Assembly: GCA_943356525.1 (NCBI GenBank) | Contig: CALRFG010000001.1 | Span: 7,278 to 71,277 of the forward strand | Source: Candidatus Nomurabacteria bacterium | GTDB lineage: Bacteria > Patescibacteriota > Minisyncoccia > Phycocordibacterales > CAIZLB01 | Direction: 5' to 3' | Length of the DNA: 64,000 bases | Shown here: positions 1,070 to 15,857 of the stretch, piece after piece | Layout: every line of letters begins with the position of its first letter | Numbering within the stretch: the first letter of the stretch is position 1 | Notes under the pieces: model-generated | The model's input: the letters and a program-made list of their open reading frames with translations, nothing else | What the model was told of the DNA's origin: nothing | The model's database searches: none | Position numbers and translations under genes: made by a program

Positions 1070-1463
1070 GGGGATGACCGGATTCGATATATAGATCTTT
1101 AACACATATGCGTAACCGAGTACCCTCAAATCTCGTTAAACTTTGAGGAACCCTATGTGCTAAAACACAGAAAGCTGTTGCGTCCAATTTTGGATTCAGC
1201 AACTCTTTCGCCTTTGCTAGAGCCTAGCTCTACCTCATGCGAGACATCTTACTACTATCTACTTTGTGTAGGAGATAAGGTGTAATATAGCAAAGTAAGG
1301 TTAAGGTGTTATCTTGAGCCTTGATCGAGATTATAAGATTAGTTTATATGATGTTTGGATGTGTATTTATAATCATATAAATGAAGTTTGAAAACATATC
1401 TATGTTACGTAGATGTATGTGTTATACCTATATAGACGAGGGTTCAACTCCCTCCATCTCCAC
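1070..1463 (+). ncRNA. ssrA: tmRNA (ssrA)
   Basis: 5' GGGGATGACCGGATTCGA matches the tmRNA 5' consensus GGGGnUGAnnnGGAUUCGA. The 3' end GACGAGGGTTCAACTCCCTCCATCTCCA is a tRNA-Ala-like T-arm plus acceptor stem. The acceptor pairs GGGGATG with CATCTCC, including the G3-U70 wobble. An internal reading frame ends ...SNSFAFARA-stop, which is a candidate tag peptide. Confidence 0.85.
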
Positions 1464-3335: not shown

Positions 3336-6317
3336 CTAAATCTCTGAAATCTCAGGACTTATACGGCAAATAGTAGATGATGAAAGATTTACACCTGGAC
3401 CTCTACAATTAACAGTTATTTTATGATTTGTTTTTAGATTATCAACACTTACAAATCCAGAATTTGAACCGTTGATAGGATCTAAATTAATTATTGGATT
3501 TGTAGGTGTTAATATGTTTTCGCCGATAGATACGACATCACAACTTGTATCATTTGGCATATTTTCTATATCCCAACTTACAACACATTTTCCACCCTTA
3601 TCAACAATTACATTAGGTTCTTTATTTAAGATTATCGAAGCTGAGTTTTGGGATCCAATATCATCTATTGCAGGAATAATACATGTTGTATTAACCGTTC
3701 TAAGCGTATTTGAATCTCTACTTTTATCAATTATATTAACAGGTATGGTTTGCTTTGATGTTGTCTTATTTATTGTAAACGAATTAGTTATAATTTTTTG
3801 GTTATCTTTATAATATTCTATTGTCGCACCATTTAAAGGACTTGCTATCAATATCACATTTGACACCGAAGGGGAGTTATTGTCGGAAACTGAACAACTT
3901 AGAAACAATTTACATTCTTTACTGTCTTTTTCATTGCTGACAGTTTCATTTGTTGTTTTATTGAAGCAAACCATATTTTGGGAATTACACCCACACTCAA
4001 TTTCATCGGCAGGAGGAGTTTCTATATTATTGACACATTGACCTTCAGGGTTTTTTATATAGTTTGTATCAATATAGTCACCGTCCAATGTTTTTTTTCT
4101 TATTATGTTACCAAATTTAATATAATCACCTTCTAGGTTTGGACAAACTGAAGTTATTTCACCAGGACAAACTCCTGCACCTGCAACACATACTTCTTGT
4201 GAATATATTCTAAAAGTTGAGGTGTTACCCCGAGCTTGATTTTGTAACATTATATAAAACTTATGTTTTCCTGGGGTTGTAGGCATTTTATATGTACCAG
4301 CATTTATATTATAGTTACTACTTCTTTCATGACCTCCAGCATTATAATAACCATTACCCCACGCTGAGGAAGCCCATAAATATTTACCTGATTTACCTTG
4401 AACGTTAGTATTTGTAAAACCAGTTTGAGGATAGGTTTTATATGGACCTTTAATAACCTCTGGATGACTTTGAACGCCACCTATTGAACTTATAGCAGTC
4501 CAAAAAGAAGCAAGTCTAGGTAAAACTCGTGGCCCCCACGTATCACCAGAATAAAATAAAACATTAATCCATTGAATTGTTGTATATCTTACTGATCTGA
4601 AATTTCTTGAAGTTACCTGTTGCCAAATATGTGCATCGTATATACCATTTAGATTAAAATTCCACCAATCATCACTAGGACCAAATAGATTGTTATTAAA
4701 TCCAGCATTATTACAAGCAACATAAGATGCATTAACCTGTAAAGTAAAGTCTTCACCCGGTTGATATATTCTTACATCACTAGGTTGAGGTGAGATAAAA
4801 GAATTTAATTTAAAATTTTGGGAAGAGTTAGCTTGTGGGGCTAACTCTGTTGTAAAAGCCTCCACTTTTTGAGAGATTAAAAATAAAGGAGTTAGTGCAA
4901 TTAAAAATAGCAAAGTACTTTTAGGCACTTTTTTATTTATTTTTTTTCTGAAAAATATAATTATAATAAATATTATAGGTAATAATGAAAGTAGAATAAT
5001 ATATGTGATTCTTATAGAATATTCTCCTAAATAAGTATTTTCTAATTCTTTCTCTGAAGGTAGATTAGTTTCATATCTTGATAAAATATCACCTTCTTCA
5101 TCAACCATCTCAGCTTTTATAATAAAACCGCTTACTGTTTTTGATATATCAACCTCAATAGCAGTAGTACTTGCTGCCGATAAATTTATTTGTGTCTGAC
5201 CTTCGCCTATAATATTATTCTTTCTATCAAAAATAGATAATTTTATCATTGCGGTTTTATTCACAGCAGTATTTTGAGTGTTACTAGCATTTTCTGTTGA
5301 ATCTTTTTCTATTTGATCGTAAAAAAACTTAGCAACTTCCTCAGAAGACATACTTGATATATCAACACCTTCAGGTTCACTTGTATCAAAATCATCAGTC
5401 TGATCATTTACAGCATTAATATCAAAAAAATCTTCATTTGTTATATTTAAAGGAATTCCAGCATATTCAATATTAACTTTAATTTTTTCTCCCTTCTTCG
5501 CGTCCAAAGAAGATGTATTTATGTTTAATATTGTACCTATATTACCTTCTAAAATATATCTAAAATAGGAAGATGGTATATAGTATTCGAGATTTTCAAA
5601 TGTTAAAACCCCAGCATAGACGAGAGGATTTATATTTGTTGGTAATTTCAATCTATACTCCTTGTTAGAATCCAATTCAATATCATCTAGTATGATGGTT
5701 TCTAAGGGTTTATTATTCAAAGTTGTTCTATTGTATAATTCTATTTTAGGTTTAACAGTAAGTCCTTTAATACCTATCTTGTCTATTTTGAATTTGATAA
5801 AAATATTTCCATCTTTTTTTACTGTTGGACCTTGTTGAGGGAAAAAATTTTTTCCTTCGGCTTCAATATTAAAATTATTTAAAGTTAAATTTTTTTTATT
5901 TTTTTTACTTTTTATAATTATAGGTTTTTGAATCTGATTTAAAAAAGTTCCATCTTTTGAGTAAACTGTAACAATAAAATCTGCTTTTGAGTTTAATTCG
6001 GTATTTAAAATATGTTCAAAATTAAAAACCTTATTAGATTTTGATTCTAAATAAATATTTTTTCCATATTGGAAATCGCTTTCTATTATTTGATTATCTA
6101 AACTTGTGGATATAAAAGTTTGTATATAAATATCTGACTCTCTTGAGGTTGAATTATTAAATATTCTAACGGAACCTTTAATAATTTCTTTTTCATTGTA
6201 TTCTATTTTATCTATAAATAAATCATTTACATAAACCCCTTCATCTTGGGCTAGTATTGTATTTTTATTACTAAAAATACAAAAAATAAATATGGAGATT
6301 AAAAATATTTTTTTCAT
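3336..6317 (-). CDS. giant surface protein, paralog 1: signal peptide, N-domain, 2-TM hairpin, C-domain, then conserved C-terminal domain
   Basis: 993-aa ORF. Signal peptide MKKIFLISIFIFCIFSNKNTILA. Mid-protein TM (YIILLSLLPIIFIIIIFF), then RKKINKK, then a second signal-like hydrophobic segment (LLFLIALTPLFLISQKVEA). C-terminal ~90 aa (VDKGGKCVVSWDIENMP...ICRISPEISEI) is shared with the genes at 6375 and 8064. Confidence 0.8.
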   Translation of the reverse strand: MKKIFLISIFIFCIFSNKNTILAQDEGVYVNDLFIDKIEYNEKEIIKGSVRIFNNSTSRESDIYIQTFISTSLDNQIIESDFQYGKNIYLESKSNKVFNFEHILNTELNSKADFIVTVYSKDGTFLNQIQKPIIIKSKKNKKNLTLNNFNIEAEGKNFFPQQGPTVKKDGNIFIKFKIDKIGIKGLTVKPKIELYNRTTLNNKPLETIILDDIELDSNKEYRLKLPTNINPLVYAGVLTFENLEYYIPSSYFRYILEGNIGTILNINTSSLDAKKGEKIKVNIEYAGIPLNITNEDFFDINAVNDQTDDFDTSEPEGVDISSMSSEEVAKFFYDQIEKDSTENASNTQNTAVNKTAMIKLSIFDRKNNIIGEGQTQINLSAASTTAIEVDISKTVSGFIIKAEMVDEEGDILSRYETNLPSEKELENTYLGEYSIRITYIILLSLLPIIFIIIIFFRKKINKKVPKSTLLFLIALTPLFLISQKVEAFTTELAPQANSSQNFKLNSFISPQPSDVRIYQPGEDFTLQVNASYVACNNAGFNNNLFGPSDDWWNFNLNGIYDAHIWQQVTSRNFRSVRYTTIQWINVLFYSGDTWGPRVLPRLASFWTAISSIGGVQSHPEVIKGPYKTYPQTGFTNTNVQGKSGKYLWASSAWGNGYYNAGGHERSSNYNINAGTYKMPTTPGKHKFYIMLQNQARGNTSTFRIYSQEVCVAGAGVCPGEITSVCPNLEGDYIKFGNIIRKKTLDGDYIDTNYIKNPEGQCVNNIETPPADEIECGCNSQNMVCFNKTTNETVSNEKDSKECKLFLSCSVSDNNSPSVSNVILIASPLNGATIEYYKDNQKIITNSFTINKTTSKQTIPVNIIDKSRDSNTLRTVNTTCIIPAIDDIGSQNSASIILNKEPNVIVDKGGKCVVSWDIENMPNDTSCDVVSIGENILTPTNPIINLDPINGSNSGFVSVDNLKTNHKITVNCRGPGVNLSSSTICRISPEISEI

Positions 6318-6368
6318 AATAATATTATATATTATCTACTTTTTAAGTGCTAATTAAATTAGTTAATT
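6318..6368 (-). promoter_or_regulatory. duplicated upstream/promoter region (copy 1) of the paralog family
   Basis: The ~45 nt immediately upstream of the start codon (AATAATATTATATATTATCTACTTTTTAAGTGCTAATTAAATTA) is near-identical to 7907..7951 upstream of the 7906 gene start (2 mismatches). AT-rich with TATA-like boxes. Confidence 0.5.
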
Positions 6369-6374
6369 AAAATC

Positions 6375-7547
6375 TTATATTTCGTTAATTTCTGGGTTTA
6401 CACGACATACAGCAGACTCAGTCAGAGAAGGATTTAGGTTAACTCCTGCACAGGTTATACTAAACTTTGTATTTGACTGTATATCACTTTGGGTATATGA
6501 ACCTGTTGACGTACTGTTTACGGTAGCGTTAACTTTAATACCATCTCGTTTTAAAGTACACTCTGTGCCTGGTGGCATATTTTCTATTTTCCAAGACAAT
6601 TTACAGTCTCCACCTTTATCTAAGGTTACTAGGGGTTTTTTTGTTATTTTTATTGATGGTTTAGCTACCGGATCTTTTGGTTTGGTGATTGTTTCACTTG
6701 TATCTGCTTCACATTTAACAGTTTTTGATGTGTTATCAAAACTATCAGTCACAGTAACATCCATAGTCTGAAGTGACTTTGTATTTGGAATAGTGTATGT
6801 ATATGATGTTCCAGGATATTGTATTTTAGTATCTTTACCTGTACTGGTATACGTAATTGTTGCTATGTTCTGAGAAGGCGTTACTGTAAATTCAACATTT
6901 AAATTATTAATACTAGCATCACAGACTGCACTTAGACCGCACATAGGGGCGTTTGCGTCTCTTGTTTCCTCCTCACTGTTCCGTGTACCCACCCAATCTC
7001 TACCAACGCAGGCATAAGTTACGGGAGATAAACATTCACCATTTATCCCTTCTAATCCTTCAGGTATCTCTGTTTGTATTTCATTAATGTTTGAACATAA
7101 ATCTGGAATAGTTAGTACACAGTCACCGTTAACGTCAAGCTCATATCCTTCAGGTATCTCTGTTTGTATTTCATCAATATTTGGACATACATCGGAGACC
7201 TCTTCTTCAACGCAAAGACCTGCCCCTGTTACACAATATGTATGCTCAAAAAGTATATATGCTGAAGGTTTATAATATGTTAATTGTTTACCTTGTTCAG
7301 ATGTACCGTAGAGAGGGTTATAGTAACTTGAACAATACTCTCCATAACCAGCACTACTGGGGTCAGCATAACCCCCAGAACTCCCAGGACTCCAGAACCC
7401 ACAGGATGAAATAACAATAGGTCCGTTATAATATTCTCTAGGTTCATACGTATTCTCGACTGTGTTTCTGTATGCGTATATATATATATAGCATGTTTTC
7501 CAGGTATAGTTGATGCTTTGTACGGTTTTGTATATACACCAAATATA
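6375..7547 (-). pseudogene. paralog 2, C-terminal portion (frame 0), open stop-to-stop from 7547 with no start of its own; part of a frameshifted gene
   Basis: Hand translation upstream of the annotated GTG at 6992 continues in frame: ...SSCGFWSPGSSGGYADPSSAGYGEYCSSYYNPLYGTSEQGKQLTYYKPSAYILFEHTYCVTGAGLCVEEEVSDVCPNIDEIQTEIPEGYELDVNGDCVLTIPDLCSNINEIQTEIPEG...GTRNSEEE... This aligns with paralog 1 (RIYSQEVCVAGAGVCPGEITSVCPNLEGDY...). It ends with the shared CTD ...AVCRVNPEINEI. Confidence 0.6.
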
Positions 7548-7906
7548 TTACGCGTTACTTTAGTAGCGTTTTTAACATTTCTCCACCATACAACATCTGT
7601 TATGTAACCAAATACATTAAACGAGTATGCATTTTCTGTTTCATTTTTAACATAAAAATCAACAGTATACGTTTCATTATTACAATCAGATAGAGAAGTG
7701 AAGAAAGTTAGATTAAAAGCCTCGCCTGGTGAATAGTTTTTACCTAAACGGTAATCATAAGGTGAAGATACTGATGATATCCTAAATTCTGGAAAATCTG
7801 ATGATCTAACCGGATAAGCCTCAGCATTAACCCAAACATAACCTGACAAAAGCAACATTACAAACATTAATATTTTCTTATTTAAAAATAAAAACATTTT
7901 TTTCAT
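7280..7906 (-). pseudogene. paralog 2, N-terminal portion (frame 2): signal peptide plus start of C-domain; apparent frameshift joins it to the 6375..7547 frame
   Basis: 208-aa ORF MKKMFLFLNKKILMFVMLLLSGYVWVNAEA... Its residues ...YKASTIPGKHAIYIYTHTETQ align with paralog 1 ...YKMPTTPGKHKFYIMLQNQ. The homolog then continues in the other frame, so a +/-1 frameshift lies around 7400-7450. Confidence 0.6.
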
Positions 7907-7951
7907 AATAATATTATATATTATTTACTTTTTAAGTACTAATTAAATTAA
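7907..7951 (-). promoter_or_regulatory. duplicated upstream/promoter region (copy 2)
   Basis: AATAATATTATATATTATTTACTTTTTAAGTACTAATTAAATTA is near-identical to 6318..6362. Confidence 0.5.
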
Positions 7952-8055
7952 TCAATTTTCACTGACCTCATATCCATATCCTCAACATAATCAAATCTTA
8001 TTACAATATCTGGTTTTATTTCATCACTTTCTATAACACTAGGCCATTCTATAAA
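7947..8055 (-). repeat. duplicated fragment of the tsaE 3' end (last ~35 codons plus stop), a remnant of segmental duplication
   Basis: ~109 nt match 10932..11040 (the tsaE C-terminus ...IEWPIIIENDEIKPDIVIRFDYVEDVDMRSVKID-stop) with a few mismatches. It sits between the 943-aa gene stop and the paralog 2 promoter copy. Confidence 0.75.
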
Positions 8056-8063
8056 CACATGAA

Positions 8064-10895
8064 TTAAATCTCATTAATAGTCGGGTTTACACGACAGATA
8101 CTAGAAGATACTATGGTTGTACTTGTGTCTCCTGAACAGCTTATGGTGTATCTTGTGTTTTGATATATTGGAGGTGATATCCATTTACCAGAGTTACCTG
8201 AAAGCGATTCAGGAGTTATGTCGCCGCCACTCAATGTACACGTCATACCAGTAGTAGGTCTATTTATTATCTCCCAGTCAAGTGTACAAGTACCACCTTT
8301 ATTTAAAGTTATGGCTGGGGTTTTTTTAATGATGATTTCAGTTAAGGCTGTTGTGTTTTCAACAGAACAAGTTGCGTTTGATTTAGAACCATCAGAATCA
8401 GTTAAATTCACCGTTAGTGACAGAGGTGTTCCTGGTGTTGTAGTTGTTGAATATATGTAGGTGTATGGTGGAGATGATTTTAGTGTAGATACATTTGGTG
8501 AGTGTGTATATGTTACATTTCCTATTCTGTTAATAGGGGTAAATGTAAAAAATGTCTTATCTAATGAGGTTGTTGGTGAACAATATGAATTGAAAGCACA
8601 TTGTGGAGAGTTTAGTGTTGTAGTTGTTGCTACCCCACCTGTTGTACATGTATTTGTTCGAGTATTGTTACATGAACATACCTGTTGGGGGGTAGTTGTG
8701 GCTTCGCATGTATTATCTGTTGCTGATTCAATCCACACACTATTTAAATTACAAGTTCTATCAGATTGACAAACTATCAAAGATTGAAAGAAAGGTGCTA
8801 TTGTTTTATATTTAGAATATGTGGTTGATGTGGCCACAAAAGTCCACAAAACATTATATGCTGGTATAACGGTATCATTTTTTGTTTTTTCCTCAACTTC
8901 ACCATTATATAAACCCTTACCGCTGTATTTATAAGATGATGAATCTACAAGCAATGGGTCTCTACAAGTAGCGTTTGATGTTAAACCTAGTTCTATTAGA
9001 CTGTATCCTCTAGTCCAAGAATCGGTGTCATGTCCGGTATTATATAACCTAAATACTACATTACACGAACCATCATAAGACATACTGGGATAATTTTCTT
9101 TATAGGCACCATAATAATATTTCTGAGAAGCACCTAGACTACTTGATTTTGCATATACATTACCAAATTTGAACTCAAAAATAGGAAATCTTATTTGCCA
9201 CCAAGAACTTGTTTGTTCCATCAAAGCATAAAAACCTTTATTTTGATTTTTTAAACTAGGTATATCAGCTGGGTTTATACCTAGATAATCACAAACATTT
9301 ACAGTTTGATCACTCCATGAACTAGTAGGGTGTTTTACAGGTGTCATGTACACACTACCTTTTATATATGTATCACTAAGACTTGTTGTACCGTCACTGT
9401 TTGTACATGTTGTTATAGATAATAAATTACTGTTATTTTCATAAGTATCAGTATTAACAACTCTAGATTTACACATAGATGGTTCAATCTTACCTGCTTC
9501 AATTACTCTAACTTTTGCACCCATAGTATTTGAATCAGCACCTTTGTATACAGATGTAACAATAACCTTACAACTACCATCATATGTTGCATAGTTAACA
9601 TTTCTTTTTCTTCCTCCTGGATCAAAAGTCACGGTACTTGCAGTACCTTTTTTAAAACTGAAAATGTGATACCTTTTTTTTAGCCAAGCTGAAGTAGCTG
9701 AATCAGAAATAACATAAAAGTTATCATTACTTTTAAGGTTACTCATATTAACACAAACATCAACAGTAATAGAAGCAGGACTAGAGGCTGTGGTTATAAT
9801 ATTACCAGTTGAAAAATTTTTTCTAACCCTAGCGTCAGTTGTTGAGCAACTCTCATTCTGTTGGCAAACAGATGTGGTTTTTATATCTTCAAGGCATGTA
9901 TCGGCAGGTTTGTTTACACCACCACAAGTTTCAACTGCTGAAATATTTGATGATACAAACAAAGCTAAAATTATTAGTAGTAACAAAAATAAACCAGCAA
10001 TCACCTTTTTACTTATTTTAGTTTTAAAAACAAAAAATAATATAACCATCAAGGCAATCATCATACCTAAAATTATATAATATATATTATTACTGTTTGT
10101 TTTTTTTAAATCAACAGTTTTAGATTGGGTCAATATTACTTGACCATCAATATCTTTTATGTCTATTTTTAATACAACTTCACCTTTTAGTTTTGATAAA
10201 GCATCTATGTTTTCATCAACAATAATACTACCTTCATTAAAAAACTTCTTATCTGATTCTTTTTTAAATATTTCAACACCTTCTTTTGTTAACGTAACAA
10301 CAATTTTATTATCCTGATCAGTATCAAATAAAGAAACATAGCCTATATTAGCCAATACGTTTGTATCCTCTATTATGATATCTGACGTTGTAAAACTATA
10401 AGCTGAATTTGACACATTAAATGAATAATCTAAATTTAATTTTTTATCACCTATTTCAATAGTTAAAATTAGGTCATATTTTCCACCTTCAAAATTTAAC
10501 GGTATTTTGATATTAATTTTATCATTTTCTAGAAACACCTCCTCAAAATATGTTTTATTTTCTTCTAAATATTGATTAAAACCTTCAATCTCTGTGTTTA
10601 TTTTTTGATTTGGTGTTTTTAATGAATAAACCAAATCCTTATTATCATTTTTAAAAATTTTCAAATCAATTTTAGGTTCAGTATCTTCGAATGAATTTTC
10701 TTTATTATCGTTAGTAAACGATATATTTAAGTTTGAATTTTTTGTCAAAGATATATTCTTTGATTCATCTTGTATAAATGAATCTGACTGTATTTTAAAA
10801 TTATCTTTAGAATATAAAACCAGTTCAGTGGAATAAATATTATTATTAATCAATAAATTTATTATTAATAAAAAAAATAAAGTGTATTTTCTCAT
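8064..10895 (-). CDS. giant surface protein, paralog 3 (same architecture: signal peptide, N-domain, 2-TM hairpin, Cys/Thr/Ser-rich C-domain, shared C-terminal domain)
   Basis: 943-aa ORF. Signal peptide MRKYTLFFLLIINLLINNNIYS. TM hairpin ...IYYIILGMMIALMVILFFVFKTKISKKVIAGLFLLLLIILALFVSS. CTD ...LNKGGTCTLDWEIINRP...ICRVNPTINEI. Confidence 0.8.
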   Translation of the reverse strand: MRKYTLFFLLIINLLINNNIYSTELVLYSKDNFKIQSDSFIQDESKNISLTKNSNLNISFTNDNKENSFEDTEPKIDLKIFKNDNKDLVYSLKTPNQKINTEIEGFNQYLEENKTYFEEVFLENDKINIKIPLNFEGGKYDLILTIEIGDKKLNLDYSFNVSNSAYSFTTSDIIIEDTNVLANIGYVSLFDTDQDNKIVVTLTKEGVEIFKKESDKKFFNEGSIIVDENIDALSKLKGEVVLKIDIKDIDGQVILTQSKTVDLKKTNSNNIYYIILGMMIALMVILFFVFKTKISKKVIAGLFLLLLIILALFVSSNISAVETCGGVNKPADTCLEDIKTTSVCQQNESCSTTDARVRKNFSTGNIITTASSPASITVDVCVNMSNLKSNDNFYVISDSATSAWLKKRYHIFSFKKGTASTVTFDPGGRKRNVNYATYDGSCKVIVTSVYKGADSNTMGAKVRVIEAGKIEPSMCKSRVVNTDTYENNSNLLSITTCTNSDGTTSLSDTYIKGSVYMTPVKHPTSSWSDQTVNVCDYLGINPADIPSLKNQNKGFYALMEQTSSWWQIRFPIFEFKFGNVYAKSSSLGASQKYYYGAYKENYPSMSYDGSCNVVFRLYNTGHDTDSWTRGYSLIELGLTSNATCRDPLLVDSSSYKYSGKGLYNGEVEEKTKNDTVIPAYNVLWTFVATSTTYSKYKTIAPFFQSLIVCQSDRTCNLNSVWIESATDNTCEATTTPQQVCSCNNTRTNTCTTGGVATTTTLNSPQCAFNSYCSPTTSLDKTFFTFTPINRIGNVTYTHSPNVSTLKSSPPYTYIYSTTTTPGTPLSLTVNLTDSDGSKSNATCSVENTTALTEIIIKKTPAITLNKGGTCTLDWEIINRPTTGMTCTLSGGDITPESLSGNSGKWISPPIYQNTRYTISCSGDTSTTIVSSSICRVNPTINEI

Positions 10896-10933
10896 ATACT
10901 AAATTATATCATTCTTTAAAAAAATACGTAGAA

Positions 10934-11347
10934 TTAATCAATTTTCACTGACCTCATATCCACATCCTCAACATAATCAAATCTTATTACAATATCTGGT
11001 TTTATTTCATCATTTTCTATGATAATAGGCCATTCTATAAATATAAGGTTTTCTTTATCTTCTAAATATTCTTCTATTCTTATCTTTTGTAAATCTTTAT
11101 AAGACTCCAACCTGTAAGCGTCTATGTGTATCAATTTTTTAAAATTTTCTATAGGAAATTCATAGCTTTTTAATATAGTAAATGTTGGACTTGTTATATC
11201 AATATTTAAATCTAGTTGCTTACACAGGTTTTTTGTAAAAGTTGTCTTACCAGAACCTAAATCACCCTGTAAATAAACAACAGTAGCCTTATCTTTGTTA
11301 GTTATAGATTTTAATTTTTTTATAAATTCTTCATAGATATTTTCCAT
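10934..11347 (-). CDS. tsaE: tRNA threonylcarbamoyladenosine biosynthesis protein TsaE (YjeE-like P-loop protein)
   Basis: 137 aa. Walker A GDLGSGKTTF, an SPTF motif, and the overall small YjeE architecture. Confidence 0.8.
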   Translation of the reverse strand: MENIYEEFIKKLKSITNKDKATVVYLQGDLGSGKTTFTKNLCKQLDLNIDITSPTFTILKSYEFPIENFKKLIHIDAYRLESYKDLQKIRIEEYLEDKENLIFIEWPIIIENDEIKPDIVIRFDYVEDVDMRSVKID

Positions 11348-11419: not shown

Positions 11420-12526
11420 TTAGATATTTTCTATAGTTAGTCTTTTTTTAGCTTGATAAATGAAGGCAAACACTGCTCCTAATATCAGAACCATAGTTGC
11501 AACCATGTAGTCAAAGAAACTTAAAGATAGACCTGTTGCAGGCAACTGACTTAGATAAACTCCTGATACAGGTGTTCCTGAAGTTATACCAGGTGTTAGA
11601 CTTACTGACGATCCACCAGTGTATGAAGGTGTGTATGAGTTGTAATAGTTTCCGTAAACAGAGTTATTGTTTTCAAAAGTAACATTACATGTTTTTGTAA
11701 TAATCTCTTGATCAGATCTTATTGTAATATTTATGTATTTTTTACCAGTTGTGTAAGATGTAAATGATGTAGATGCACCTGAAACACTGTTTATATCACC
11801 ACCCCATATGTAAGTATAGTTACCTATACCACCTGTTGCATAAGCCGTAGCTGTTACTGATTGACCAGGTCTAGGGTTTGATGGAGTTATTGTACAATAA
11901 CCATCTAACAAAACACGATTAGGGTTATGAACTACAGCATTACCAGTTGGGTTTGTATAAACATATACATTGTTATTGTTAACATTATTGTTTATAGCTG
12001 TAGCAGTTGATGATGAGTTTGAGTTTGAAGTTGAAGTTGAAGTCGAGTTTGATAGGTTGGTGTTTGTATTGGCGTTATTATTTGATGTAGTGTTTGATGA
12101 ATAGTTTGAATTAGGTATAAATGAAGATGTGTATGATGAACCATATGATGGTAAAGAGTATCCACTGTAATATGAACCACTGTATGATGGTAGAGAGTAT
12201 CCACTATAACTAGAACCACTATATGACGGCGTGTAGTAAGACGGAGTATATGATGATCCGTAGTTATATGATGGTGAAGAATATGAGGGTGAAGAATATG
12301 AAGGGGTGTATGATGGTGAAGAATAAGAATACACAGGAGAGTATGAGTAAGTACTTGGACCTGAATAACCATAATTTGAGGTATATCCACCACCAGTCAT
12401 GATACCAGGACCTCCAGTTCCTGAAAAAGAATTATCTTTTCCCGCGAAAACCACACCAGGTATCATAAATATAGCAAAAACTACCATAATTATTGTTTTT
12501 TTGATTTGTTTGTTTGTTTTTAACAT
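11420..12526 (-). CDS. LPXTG-anchored cell-surface protein with Ser/Tyr/Pro-rich repeats
   Basis: Signal peptide. Repeats of the form SPSYTPSYSSPSYSSPSY and YSGSYYSGYSLPSYSGS. C-terminal sortase signal LPATG, then a hydrophobic segment, then KKRL. Confidence 0.75.
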   Translation of the reverse strand: MLKTNKQIKKTIIMVVFAIFMIPGVVFAGKDNSFSGTGGPGIMTGGGYTSNYGYSGPSTYSYSPVYSYSSPSYTPSYSSPSYSSPSYNYGSSYTPSYYTPSYSGSSYSGYSLPSYSGSYYSGYSLPSYGSSYTSSFIPNSNYSSNTTSNNNANTNTNLSNSTSTSTSNSNSSSTATAINNNVNNNNVYVYTNPTGNAVVHNPNRVLLDGYCTITPSNPRPGQSVTATAYATGGIGNYTYIWGGDINSVSGASTSFTSYTTGKKYINITIRSDQEIITKTCNVTFENNNSVYGNYYNSYTPSYTGGSSVSLTPGITSGTPVSGVYLSQLPATGLSLSFFDYMVATMVLILGAVFAFIYQAKKRLTIENI

Positions 12527-13493: not shown

Positions 13494-14030
13494 TTAATTG
13501 ACAGGAAACATTTTTCTGATTTCGGCTGGAACCTCCGATTCTGGAACAAAAATCGTTTGAGTCCTTATGCTCACAGGGTTCTTTTTCTGTTCAAGTTTAA
13601 CAAAAAAAGTTCCGTCGGGGTCATACATCCCAGATAAAGCCCTTTTTGCAAAGGGGATATATTCCTCCCCTTGAGGTAGAGTACCTTTGTCACTTAGCTT
13701 TTTTGAAGCCATTTGAGAGATTTCTCTTTCAACAAGGTTAATTCTTTCGGGTGTTATTCCAGAACCACGAGCAGGAACGAGTCCGACTGTGGCAGTAACA
13801 CTGCCGCTATAGTATGGTGTTTTTTTAGTAACATTAACACCTTTTAACTGTTTTACGGTTCGTGTTTGGGTCTCCGACACCTCTCTTAAACCATCTTGAC
13901 CTTGTAGGTTTTGGATATAGGGCCGGATTGCCAGCGGTTGACCCTCTGGGACAAAGTGTACACAGGACGAGAGGCAAAGGATAGCAAGAATAATAGTGAC
14001 AGTGACGACGATTTTAACGATATTTTTCAT
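13494..14030 (-). CDS. putative lipoprotein (relatively GC-rich gene)
   Basis: 178 aa with a signal peptide and lipobox-like ILCLSSC. Local GC is ~40-45% against ~30% for the surroundings. Confidence 0.6.
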   Translation of the reverse strand: MKNIVKIVVTVTIILAILCLSSCVHFVPEGQPLAIRPYIQNLQGQDGLREVSETQTRTVKQLKGVNVTKKTPYYSGSVTATVGLVPARGSGITPERINLVEREISQMASKKLSDKGTLPQGEEYIPFAKRALSGMYDPDGTFFVKLEQKKNPVSIRTQTIFVPESEVPAEIRKMFPVN

Positions 14031-14174
14031 GACTTCTGGAGTAGTTTGTTTTGTTTTTGTTCAACTCCATCCCTACATAGGGTGGACTTAGATGTTAACA
14101 TATTAACACAAAACAACTTAAAAGTCAATCATCTGCAATTAGCACAAAACATTATAAACATTTACAATACATTC

Positions 14175-15857
14175 ATGACAATAATCTTTGATGAAGATAA
14201 GAAAAACCAACAACTCAAACAAATGAGACAAGAAGAAGATGAAAGACTTGTAAAAATGCTTTCGGATCGATACTCTATTCCTTATATAAACCTCTCTACA
14301 GTTTCTATAAACACTGACGCACTTCGATTACTTGATCAAGAGGAGTCTAAAAAATCTGAATGTGTTATTTTTGATATTGTCGGTAAAAAACTTTACCTTG
14401 CTTTATATAATCCATTAAATTCAAATATTGAAGTGACTGTAGATAGTTTAAAAAGAAAAGGATATGAAATAGTTTTTCACATAGCATCAATGTATAGTGT
14501 TGAAAAAGCATTTAATTTTTACAAAGATTTATCTTTTGCTGTTGAAACAGAGGCGGGTTCATTGGATATATCAAATAATGAAATAGAGACGCTTGTTGAA
14601 AAAACACAAAGTCTTGATGATATTAAAATTTTTATTGAAGAAGCTTTGAAGGAAAAAAAGAGTCACAGGCTTTCAAAACTTTTGGCTGTTATTATGGCTG
14701 GAGGTCTTGCAACGAAAGCATCTGATATACACATAGAAGCAGAAGATTCGTATTCAAAACTTAGATACCGTGTCGATGGTGTTCTAATAGAAACTTCTCG
14801 TTTTGACCTTGAAACATATCATTCACTTTTATCTCGTTTAAAACTTTTATCAGGACTTAAGTTAAATATAAAAGAAAATTCACAAGATGGAAGATTTACA
14901 ATAAAAATTTATACTGCGGATGTTGAGATCCGTGTTTCAACTATACCAGGGGCATATGGCGAGTCTGTTGTTATGCGTATTCTAAACCCTAAATCTATCT
15001 CATCAGGACTTGAGGATTTAGGAATGACAAAAAAACTATATGACATTGTCATGAAAGAAATAAGTAGACCAAATGGTCTTATACTTCTAACTGGACCAAC
15101 AGGTTCTGGAAAAACTACAACTTTGTATGCATTTTTAAAAAAGACAATGTCACCTGAGTATAAAATAATAACTATCGAGGACCCTGTTGAATATCATTTA
15201 CCTGGAGTTGTCCAGACACAAGTTGATGAAAATAAAGGATATACTTTTGGTGAGGGTTTGAGATCTATTCTTCGTCAAGATCCTGATATTATTCTTGTGG
15301 GTGAGATACGTGATTCAGAAACAGCTTCAACAGCTATACAAGCATCACTTACAGGTCATTTGGTTTTCTCCACATTGCACACCAACAACGCAGCTGGAAC
15401 TTTTATACGACTTATGGACCTAGGTGCTGATCCAAAAACATTAACATCCTCTCTTCATTTAGCTATAGCACAAAGACTTATAAGAACATTGTGTCTAGAC
15501 TGTAGAAAACTTGTTGATATAACAGAAAGACAAAAAAGAATAATACAAGAAACAATAAATTCTTTAGATGGTTATGAAGAAAAAGATGAAATAAAAGAAA
15601 TACCTATGCAACTTTATCAAGCTGTTGGTTGTAAAGAATGTAATAACACTGGTTATAAAGGACGTATCGGAATACATGAAGGAATATTATCAAATGAAAA
15701 AATAGAAAAAATTATTGCAACCGGTCCAAGTGAAAGAGAAATTAAAGAAGCTGCTTTAGATCAAAAACTAATAAATATGAAGCAGGATGGTATTATAAAA
15801 ATACTGAAAGGAATAACAACGATAGATGAGCTAGAGAGAGTTGTTGATATATATTAA
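14175..15857 (+). CDS. pilB: type IV pilus / type II secretion ATPase, PilB/GspE family (paralog 1)
   Basis: GspE N-terminal domain (SDRYSIPYINLSTVSI). Walker A GPTGSGKTTTLYAF, Walker B ILVGEIRD, and tetracysteine CLDC...CKEC. The ORF track start at 13911 overlaps the opposite-strand gene; the Met at 14175 (MTIIFDED) is the likelier start. Confidence 0.85.
   Translation: MTIIFDEDKKNQQLKQMRQEEDERLVKMLSDRYSIPYINLSTVSINTDALRLLDQEESKKSECVIFDIVGKKLYLALYNPLNSNIEVTVDSLKRKGYEIVFHIASMYSVEKAFNFYKDLSFAVETEAGSLDISNNEIETLVEKTQSLDDIKIFIEEALKEKKSHRLSKLLAVIMAGGLATKASDIHIEAEDSYSKLRYRVDGVLIETSRFDLETYHSLLSRLKLLSGLKLNIKENSQDGRFTIKIYTADVEIRVSTIPGAYGESVVMRILNPKSISSGLEDLGMTKKLYDIVMKEISRPNGLILLTGPTGSGKTTTLYAFLKKTMSPEYKIITIEDPVEYHLPGVVQTQVDENKGYTFGEGLRSILRQDPDIILVGEIRDSETASTAIQASLTGHLVFSTLHTNNAAGTFIRLMDLGADPKTLTSSLHLAIAQRLIRTLCLDCRKLVDITERQKRIIQETINSLDGYEEKDEIKEIPMQLYQAVGCKECNNTGYKGRIGIHEGILSNEKIEKIIATGPSEREIKEAALDQKLINMKQDGIIKILKGITTIDELERVVDIY

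Follow-up and report, generated by a model that had tools for sequence, protein, structure and literature searches.

Why should a secreted bacterial protein carry, in its middle, a segment that resembles a signal peptide? The question is raised by a 64,000-nucleotide stretch (the window) of contig CALRFG010000001.1 from Candidatus Nomurabacteria bacterium (assembly GCA_943356525.1, positions 7,278 to 71,277), which has a G+C content of about 30% and whose closest genome-level relatives are metagenome-assembled genomes of Candidatus Paceibacteria and Parcubacteria. On its minus strand the genes run in the order TsaE (10934..11347), a 943-residue protein (B943), a broken middle paralog (M, from 7906 down to 6375) and a 993-residue protein (A993). 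An earlier note on this DNA had described the two large proteins as a signal peptide and an outside N-domain followed by a stop-transfer helix, a short basic loop, a helix resembling a signal peptide, and a second outside domain. This order was found to be conserved, and with moderate confidence we propose that A993 and B943 are precursors that would be cut twice by signal peptidase I, yielding an anchored N-terminal part (the N-module) and a released, variable passenger (the C-part).

Both hairpin peptides quoted in that note are present in the A993 and B943 translations, and the A993 hairpin, placed by the note at 4870..5010, was measured at 4857..5009, a few bases off. A993 is comprised, in order, of a signal peptide, the N-module, a first transmembrane (TM) helix (TM1), a basic loop, an internal signal peptide (TM2), a C1 domain, a variable Cys-rich region, and a C-terminal domain with its tail. 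In a 19-residue Kyte-Doolittle window TM1 and TM2 peak at 2.99 and 1.75 in A993 and at 2.76 and 2.93 in B943; the only other peak above 1.6 in the two proteins is the N-terminal signal peptide of A993, that of B943 being visible only with an 11-residue window. A word-indexed homolog search returned seven relatives for A993 and nine for B943, nearly all of about 1000 residues. TM1 and TM2 are kept in unchanged order in 16 of 16 close homologs, in all of which the internal segment, a point the note had singled out for checking, is hydrophobic; an N-terminal hydrophobic segment is found in all of them but P0016, whose N-terminus looks truncated.

Family-wide, 161 sequences were examined, of which 149 possess the hairpin in the form of two internal hydrophobic segments near residue 390-450. 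Over the 149 sequences the loop averages a net charge of +3.5 (3.7 K+R, 0.2 D+E), and the 15-residue flanks each carry about -0.4, as expected under the positive-inside rule. Cysteines are distributed as one in the N-part and 15 in the C-part of A993, and five and 17, respectively, in B943. A full-length AlphaFold2 model of A993, which was built on seven sequences (pLDDT 53.5) and is usable for secondary structure only, shows helices at residues 422-457, spanning TM1, and 466-496. The predicted topology (signal peptide, N-module outside, TM1, loop inside, TM2, C-part outside) is supported by hydropathy, by the bias in charge, by conservation, by the placing of the Cys residues and by the split genes described below, and it is conserved in both local families as well as in the 149 hairpin-bearing sequences.

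Judged by its sequence features, TM2 behaves as a genuine signal peptide. Its n-region is basic (RKKINKK in A993, KTKISKK in B943), its median hydrophobic length is 20 residues versus 24 for TM1 by the same measure (n=149), and its core is followed by a polar c-region (SQKVEA, SSNISA), often preceded by Pro or Gly. The motif [small]xA[FWY] occurs in 82 of the 149 family sequences, compared with 4.5% of control windows. When the internal site was chosen as the best -3/-1 site, by a rule that favours Ala and ignores +1, Ala was found at -1 in 146/149 sequences, with A, V, I, T, S or L at -3; the +1 residue was F, W or Y in 67/149 and the +2 residue Thr in 51/149. For P0016 an alternative site, VQA/Q (the slash marks the predicted cut), is needed to escape a Pro at +1. 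Cleavage would create new N-termini at F488 in A993 (FTTELAPQANSSQNFK) and at V321 in B943 (VETCGGVNKPADTCLEDIK). The presence of a conserved residue directly after the internal site suggests that this new N-terminus is made and used, and the C-part is probably cut free at TM2 by signal peptidase I. The N-terminal signal peptide has, across the family, Ala at -1 in 145/151 and Gln at +1 in 80/151 sequences, without a notable preference at +2; as the predicted N-terminus of the mature N-module (...A/Q, 80/151), this Gln could cyclise to pyroglutamate.

The earlier note had asked whether homologs carry the two halves as separate or as fused genes. Separate and adjacent halves were found in four gene pairs on three contigs (two pairs on L005, one each on L011 and L012), and the halves are clearly separable units. 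The split N-module genes end straight after TM1 and its basic tail, while the adjoining or overlapping gene opens with a signal peptide. In the first L005 pair the upstream gene ends ...YRVFNRIKKNK and stop, as TAA-T-ATG, and the downstream gene starts with MNIKKYFIKVLLLSLFFILFLSCKTFA/YTL and ends ...GTEIEI; on L011 and on L012/L013 the downstream gene overlaps the N-module stop by 8 nucleotides, and its signal peptide ends THA/F or VQA/Y. Split N-modules (P0150, P0099, P0106 and the second L005 pair) are rare and nested among fused relatives: P0150 is 42% identical to the fused P0157, and P0099 and P0106 make up a single split clade, their nearest relatives outside it being fused. Fused forms dominate, and on this nesting fission seems at least as likely as fusion in the split lineages. 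The proposal that the big genes arose by fusing an upstream gene onto a signal-peptide-bearing gene is borne out as regards separable genes, fusion being only one of the two possible directions. Likewise, of the claim that both domains lie outside and are tethered by a 2-TM hairpin, the outside placement holds; tethering is probably not the end state, because of the near-invariant Ala at -1, the aromatic residue at +1 and the N-terminal use of the same segment in split genes.

The C-part ends in a conserved tail with the consensus [C/V]-x-x-[N/G]-[P/G]-x-[F/I/V/Y]-x-Glu-[F/I/N/R]-COOH. The three copies in the window end ...C-R-[IV]-[NS]-P-x-I-[SN]-E-I (3339..3368, 6378..6407 and 8067..8096), and within these 64 kb the full motif is confined to the three family genes. 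Among 146 full-length representatives, which also served for the C1 counts, the penultimate residue is Glu in 115 (79%) against a Glu background of 4.1%; several of the others show Gln instead, or run on for a few residues past the motif. At non-redundant loci, Glu is found at -2 in 15/15 family open reading frames (ORFs) versus 9/173 other ORFs. The tail is kept where the recognisable four-Cys C-terminal domain is gone (56/146). A profile of the C-terminal domain recovered one fragment only from a collection of 5.8 billion proteins, so that the frequency of the tail without an N-module was not obtainable from it. The tail is tied to the hairpin architecture, and has the look of a C-terminal recognition signal that lacks a TM helix and has so far gone undescribed. 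Like the PEP-CTERM, PGF-CTERM, MYXO-CTERM and type IX secretion system (T9SS) CTD signals, it joins variable passengers to a conserved, lineage-specific extreme C-terminus. The known small sorting signals, as published, consist of a motif, a TM helix and a basic cluster, whereas the Glu tail has no TM helix and ends within two residues of the key Glu. T9SS requires an outer membrane, which these bacteria are not known to have.

In the mechanism that we propose, the N-terminal signal peptide would route the chain into the Sec pathway and the N-module (in A993, three predicted immunoglobulin/MG-like beta-sandwiches) would be translocated; TM1 would then halt transfer, leaving the short K/R loop in the cytoplasm, and the internal signal peptide would restart translocation so that the Cys-rich C-part is exported as well. 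Signal peptidase I would cleave at ...A/Q near the N-terminus and at ...AxA/[F/W/Y]T after the hairpin. Two products would result, an N-module anchored in the membrane and retaining the hairpin, and a free passenger of variable adhesin-type domains. The latter might perhaps be held at the surface by its tail (...[N/G][P/G]-x-hydrophobic-x-Glu-x-COOH) binding the N-module or another envelope component. Segment order, charge bias, conservation and split-gene versions are read directly from the sequence; it is the cleavage that we infer.

For the glycoprotein precursors of bunyaviruses, the cutting of an internal signal peptide by signal peptidase is an established process (PMC7926653). Precursors of this Gn/Gc type, and those of other enveloped viruses with internal signal peptides, share with A993 the succession of signal peptide, first ectodomain, TM helix, short cytoplasmic segment, internal signal peptide and second ectodomain, and their cleavage, which for A993 and B943 would be predicted, gives two cooperating proteins. 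Unlike them, A993 and B943 are cellular proteins that would use bacterial Sec and signal peptidase I, have no sequence or fold relationship to the viral proteins, and would release a second product without a TM anchor of its own. A bacterial precedent is FbcH of Bradyrhizobium japonicum, the cytochrome b/c1 precursor, in which one gene gives two proteins through cleavage of an internal signal peptide after membrane helices. FbcH is a respiratory enzyme, a single case and non-homologous, whereas A993 and B943 belong to a large, diversifying surface family.

The opposite outcome, a hairpin that is never cut, would leave a single chain with two ectodomains on a 2-TM hairpin, the AxA-like motif being an ancestral relic or having a packing role; to this we give a modest probability. 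Its topology has a model in E. coli CcmH and DsbD, redox enzymes with a cleavable signal peptide, a periplasmic N-domain, an even number of TM helices and a periplasmic C-domain, in which the last helix stays uncut; neither is homologous to A993 or B943. Several observations weigh on this side or against parts of the cleavage model. The hydrophobic stretch of TM2, of about 15-20 residues, can span the membrane and is long enough for an uncleaved anchor, and the full-length model shows two long helices there. The generic -3/-1 pattern is also present in 92% of random 20-residue windows and is for this reason uninformative, so that only the Ala and aromatic specificity counts, and the Ala count is itself biased by the site rule, those at +1 and +2 being unbiased. 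A motif scan of the 64-kb window found no signal peptidase I gene, an absence that is expected at this length, the enzyme being assumed. The five Cys in the N-part make the Cys-skew argument weaker for B943, the passenger of the L011 split pair has no Glu tail, and binding of the tail to the N-module can be suggested only weakly, the full-length model being poor. An uncut chain would also explain retention of the passenger at the surface without an extra binding step. However, Ala at -1, the aromatic residue at +1 and Thr at +2 are conserved even though the N-modules share 20-30% identity and the rest of TM2 is unconserved; TM2 is shorter than TM1, often with Pro or Gly near its end; and in split genes a large secreted protein starts with the same segment as its ordinary signal peptide. 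These features argue against an uncut hairpin.

Two further explanations concern what the released or anchored parts would do. Type IV pili have been tied to host binding in Saccharibacteria (PMC11623550), and the passenger could be a pilus accessory whose tail docks on, for example, minor pilins, so that its variable domains would be shown on the pilus or close to it, with the N-module merely a delivery or holding platform; we consider this improbable. It draws on gene neighbourhoods: P0039 lies between pilT and pilC (L014, 8001..10628), P0152 and a 1359-residue paralog follow minor pilins and PilD (L015, 5897..15421), in L011 pilC and a large N_methyl protein come after the pair (5001..8175), the window, L002 and L016 have in common the order PilB ... 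TsaE - family gene, and of 17 non-redundant contexts about 6-8 contain a pilus gene no further than 10 kb away. In about half of the contexts, however, no pilus gene is seen within that distance, the sample is small and without a formal control, and a single conserved synteny block accounts for three of the positives; a related-locus search with the A993 alignment yielded five loci per collection, too few for association statistics. The two small neighbour proteins in the window are not pilins, and A/FT is not a class III (prepilin) signal: the hydrophobic stretch precedes the site and polar sequence follows it, for which reason a prepilin-type signal there was rejected. The pilus-gene association is a lead only. 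In the window the nearest pilus gene encodes a PilB-type ATPase (13911..15857, five genes off), and a second PilB/PilC locus lies at about 55.7-62.8 kb. Far less probable still is that TM1 and its basic tail form a sortase sorting signal linking the N-module to peptidoglycan, with LPSEKEL as a variant LPXTG. The succession of a TM helix and a K/R cluster has the shape found in sortase substrates, split N-module genes end in this way, and LPSEKEL lies about 15 residues before TM1 and is conserved in close A993 homologs. Yet in the 35 residues before TM1 LPxT[GASN] was found in 0/159 sequences and LP[ST][EQ] in only 19/159, the B943 family has no such motif, and TM1 with its basic tail is C-terminal only in split N-module genes (P0150, P0099, P0106), being internal in fused ones; a sortase signal at TM1 was rejected on the 0/159 count. 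The same genome does encode, about five kb away and just upstream of the cluster (11420..12526, minus strand), a 368-residue secreted protein with a long Ser/Tyr/Pro-rich low-complexity region that ends in LPATG, a hydrophobic helix and KKR, indicating that the organism also uses classical sortase anchoring.

Table 1. Features of the A993-M-B943 cluster (window coordinates; a slash marks a predicted cleavage site).
Feature	Residues	Position	Strand	Basis and remarks
A993, 993-aa precursor		3336..6317	-	ORF and translation; P0001-P0007 of like architecture
A993 N-terminal signal peptide, MKKIFLISIFIFCIFSNKNTILA/QDEG	1-23	6249..6317	-	Translation
A993 N-module	24-425	5043..6248	-	Three beta-sandwich domains and a helical insert (model); predicted outside
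A993 TM1 (stop-transfer helix), ITYIILLSLLPIIFIIIIFF	437-456	4950..5009	-	Kyte-Doolittle peak 2.99; hydrophobic in all homologs
A993 basic loop, RKKINKKVPKS	457-467	4917..4949	-	Charge bias; predicted cytoplasmic
A993 TM2, putative internal signal peptide, TLLFLIALTPLFLISQKVEA	468-487	4857..4916	-	Putative signal peptidase I site VEA/FT, residues 487/488
A993 C1 domain	488-720	4158..4856	-	Alignment; ends at conserved CVxGAGxC
A993 C-terminal four-Cys domain and tail, ends ...CRISPEISEI		3339..3635	-	Common to B943 and M (tblastn, alignment)
M, signal peptide and C-part only, frameshifted		6375..7906	-	tblastn and three-frame translation
Region upstream of M, duplicated 5' cassette and TsaE 3'-end remnant		7884..8014	-	blastn
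B943, 943-aa paralog		8064..10895	-	Same architecture as A993; N-module differs, shorter (about 270 aa)
B943 hairpin	271-320	9936..10085	-	Hydropathy and alignment
B943 TM1, IYYIILGMMIALMVILFFVF	271-290	within 9936..10085	-	Hydropathy
B943 basic loop, KTKISKK	291-297	within 9936..10085	-	Translation
B943 putative internal signal peptide, VIAGLFLLLLIILALFVSSNISA/VE	298-320	within 9936..10085	-	Ends ISA/VE

The extent of the family was scrutinized with a profile built from the A993 alignment and searched against 1.84 billion proteins, each representing a cluster at 50% identity. Matches numbered 920 proteins at E<=1e-3, 494 at E<=1e-10 and 203 at E<=1e-30, most of them over the first ~295 profile positions, that is the N-module, in proteins of 800-1800 residues with unrelated C-parts. 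Pfam-A and NCBIfam scans, which took in A993, B943 and the genes next to them, gave no family above the curated cut-off for the two proteins, and curated-domain matches (fn3, PKD, FG-GAP, Flg_new) were confined to the passenger domains of some relatives, in which the domain types found are fn3, PKD, FG-GAP and InlB-type repeats. A search of PDB sequences with the family profile yielded nothing beyond marginal matches to arrestin and Spo0M (E 0.004-0.008), and literature searches on the family, bacterial internal signal peptides, FbcH and sorting signals specific to the Candidate Phyla Radiation (CPR) returned nothing on the A993/B943 family. By these sequence comparisons A993 and B943 are members of a large, undescribed, lineage-specific family of the Patescibacteria (Parcubacteria/Paceibacteria).

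The N-module model of A993, which is of good quality, finds its best Foldseek matches in the PDB among CD109, A2ML1, C5, TEP1 and E. coli ECAM (E about 1e-9), and the fold searches returned generic beta-sandwich arrays only, with no enzyme or specific adhesin fold. The MG-domain arrays of alpha-2-macroglobulin, complement C3-C5 and TEP proteins may have a counterpart in this model, a string of MG/Ig-like beta-sandwiches, but the CxEQ thioester motif is absent from A993 and B943, and a thioester protein was rejected on this ground. Compared by hhalign, the N-modules of A993 and B943 share a 40-column match at 73% probability; homology between them is therefore not claimed, and the hairpin architecture is common to at least two N-module types. 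A C1-like domain directly after the hairpin was detected by a local hidden Markov model in 72/146 representatives, none of them in the B943 family. A DsbB-family gene is located about 1 kb upstream of P0007 (L003, 1192..1752; L004, 8397..8957), which fits the disulfide need of a Cys-rich passenger.

The middle paralog M had been presented as the standalone version of the C-part, with an N-terminal signal peptide matching the second hydrophobic segment of its neighbours. Its ORFs comprise 208 residues (7280..7906) and 205 residues, similarity to A993 being picked up again, in a different frame, between about 7385 and 6378. The same broken ORFs are found, identical, in at least four independent assemblies, so the frameshift is no one-off assembly error: in this population M is a genuine pseudogene or else is expressed as a truncated product. 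Its signal peptide matches the internal helix of A993 weakly (E=0.002). With the full-length, 875-residue P0039, M residues 10-145 share 45% identity over 158 columns with residues 421-571 (E=6e-36), the N-terminal signal peptide of M (KKILMFVMLLLSGYVWVNAEA) aligning position by position with the internal helix of P0039 (KKMLMIAMLFLSGYVGANAEA). The homology claimed by the note thus holds; a clean or ancestral standalone gene is contradicted by the frameshift and by duplicated fragments upstream. There, 7889..7957 is 93% identical to 6300..6368 (the A993 5' region and first six codons) and 7884..8014 matches 10873..11000 at 82% identity (sequence upstream of B943 together with the TsaE end), both by blastn. 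These duplicated 5' copies, together with a contig of a 75%-identical relative in which TsaE is followed by a single family gene, indicate segmental duplication as the origin of the local cluster. M appears to be a copy that has lost its N-module and TM1, a deletion and recombination derivative of a full-length gene that would now be decaying.

The cassette of about 70 bp (5' untranslated region and first codons) standing before the paralogs is a record of the segmental duplications that built the cluster. M also contains a 49-bp direct repeat (7055..7103 and 7145..7193, 92% identical) encoding a ...N-I-[DN]-E-I-Q-T-E-I-P-E-G... unit. Downstream of the cluster, beyond a 439-residue ORF, lies a tmRNA gene (1070..1463, plus strand) with the tag peptide AKTQKAVASNFGFSNSFAFARA, the SmpB gene being located further along the contig, outside the window (L001).

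The Patescibacteria, or CPR, account for a large part of bacterial diversity, and those in cultivation grow attached to other microbes. Little is known of the ways in which they present and vary their surface proteins, and in the present family a conserved module for anchoring is paired with adhesin-type domains that are highly variable. If its members are cleaved as proposed, they would represent a natural and widespread bacterial polyprotein strategy, for which the other known examples are mainly enveloped viruses and isolated cases among bacteria. More tentatively, and as a possibility that we regard as doubtful at present, the family may constitute a Patescibacteria-wide surface-display system, in which the internal signal peptide would split each precursor into a membrane dock and a fast-evolving adhesin, and the tail would be a new attachment signal without a TM helix, whose reader might be the N-module, a component of type IV pili, or a transpeptidase with the last residue as leaving group. 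Pipelines whose annotation covers signal peptides at the N-terminus only will mislabel the family as 2-TM membrane proteins, and the family-specific Glu-x C-terminus offers a simple handle for finding both the cargo and its reader. If the display-system reading is true, this would be a main route by which episymbionts show host-binding proteins.

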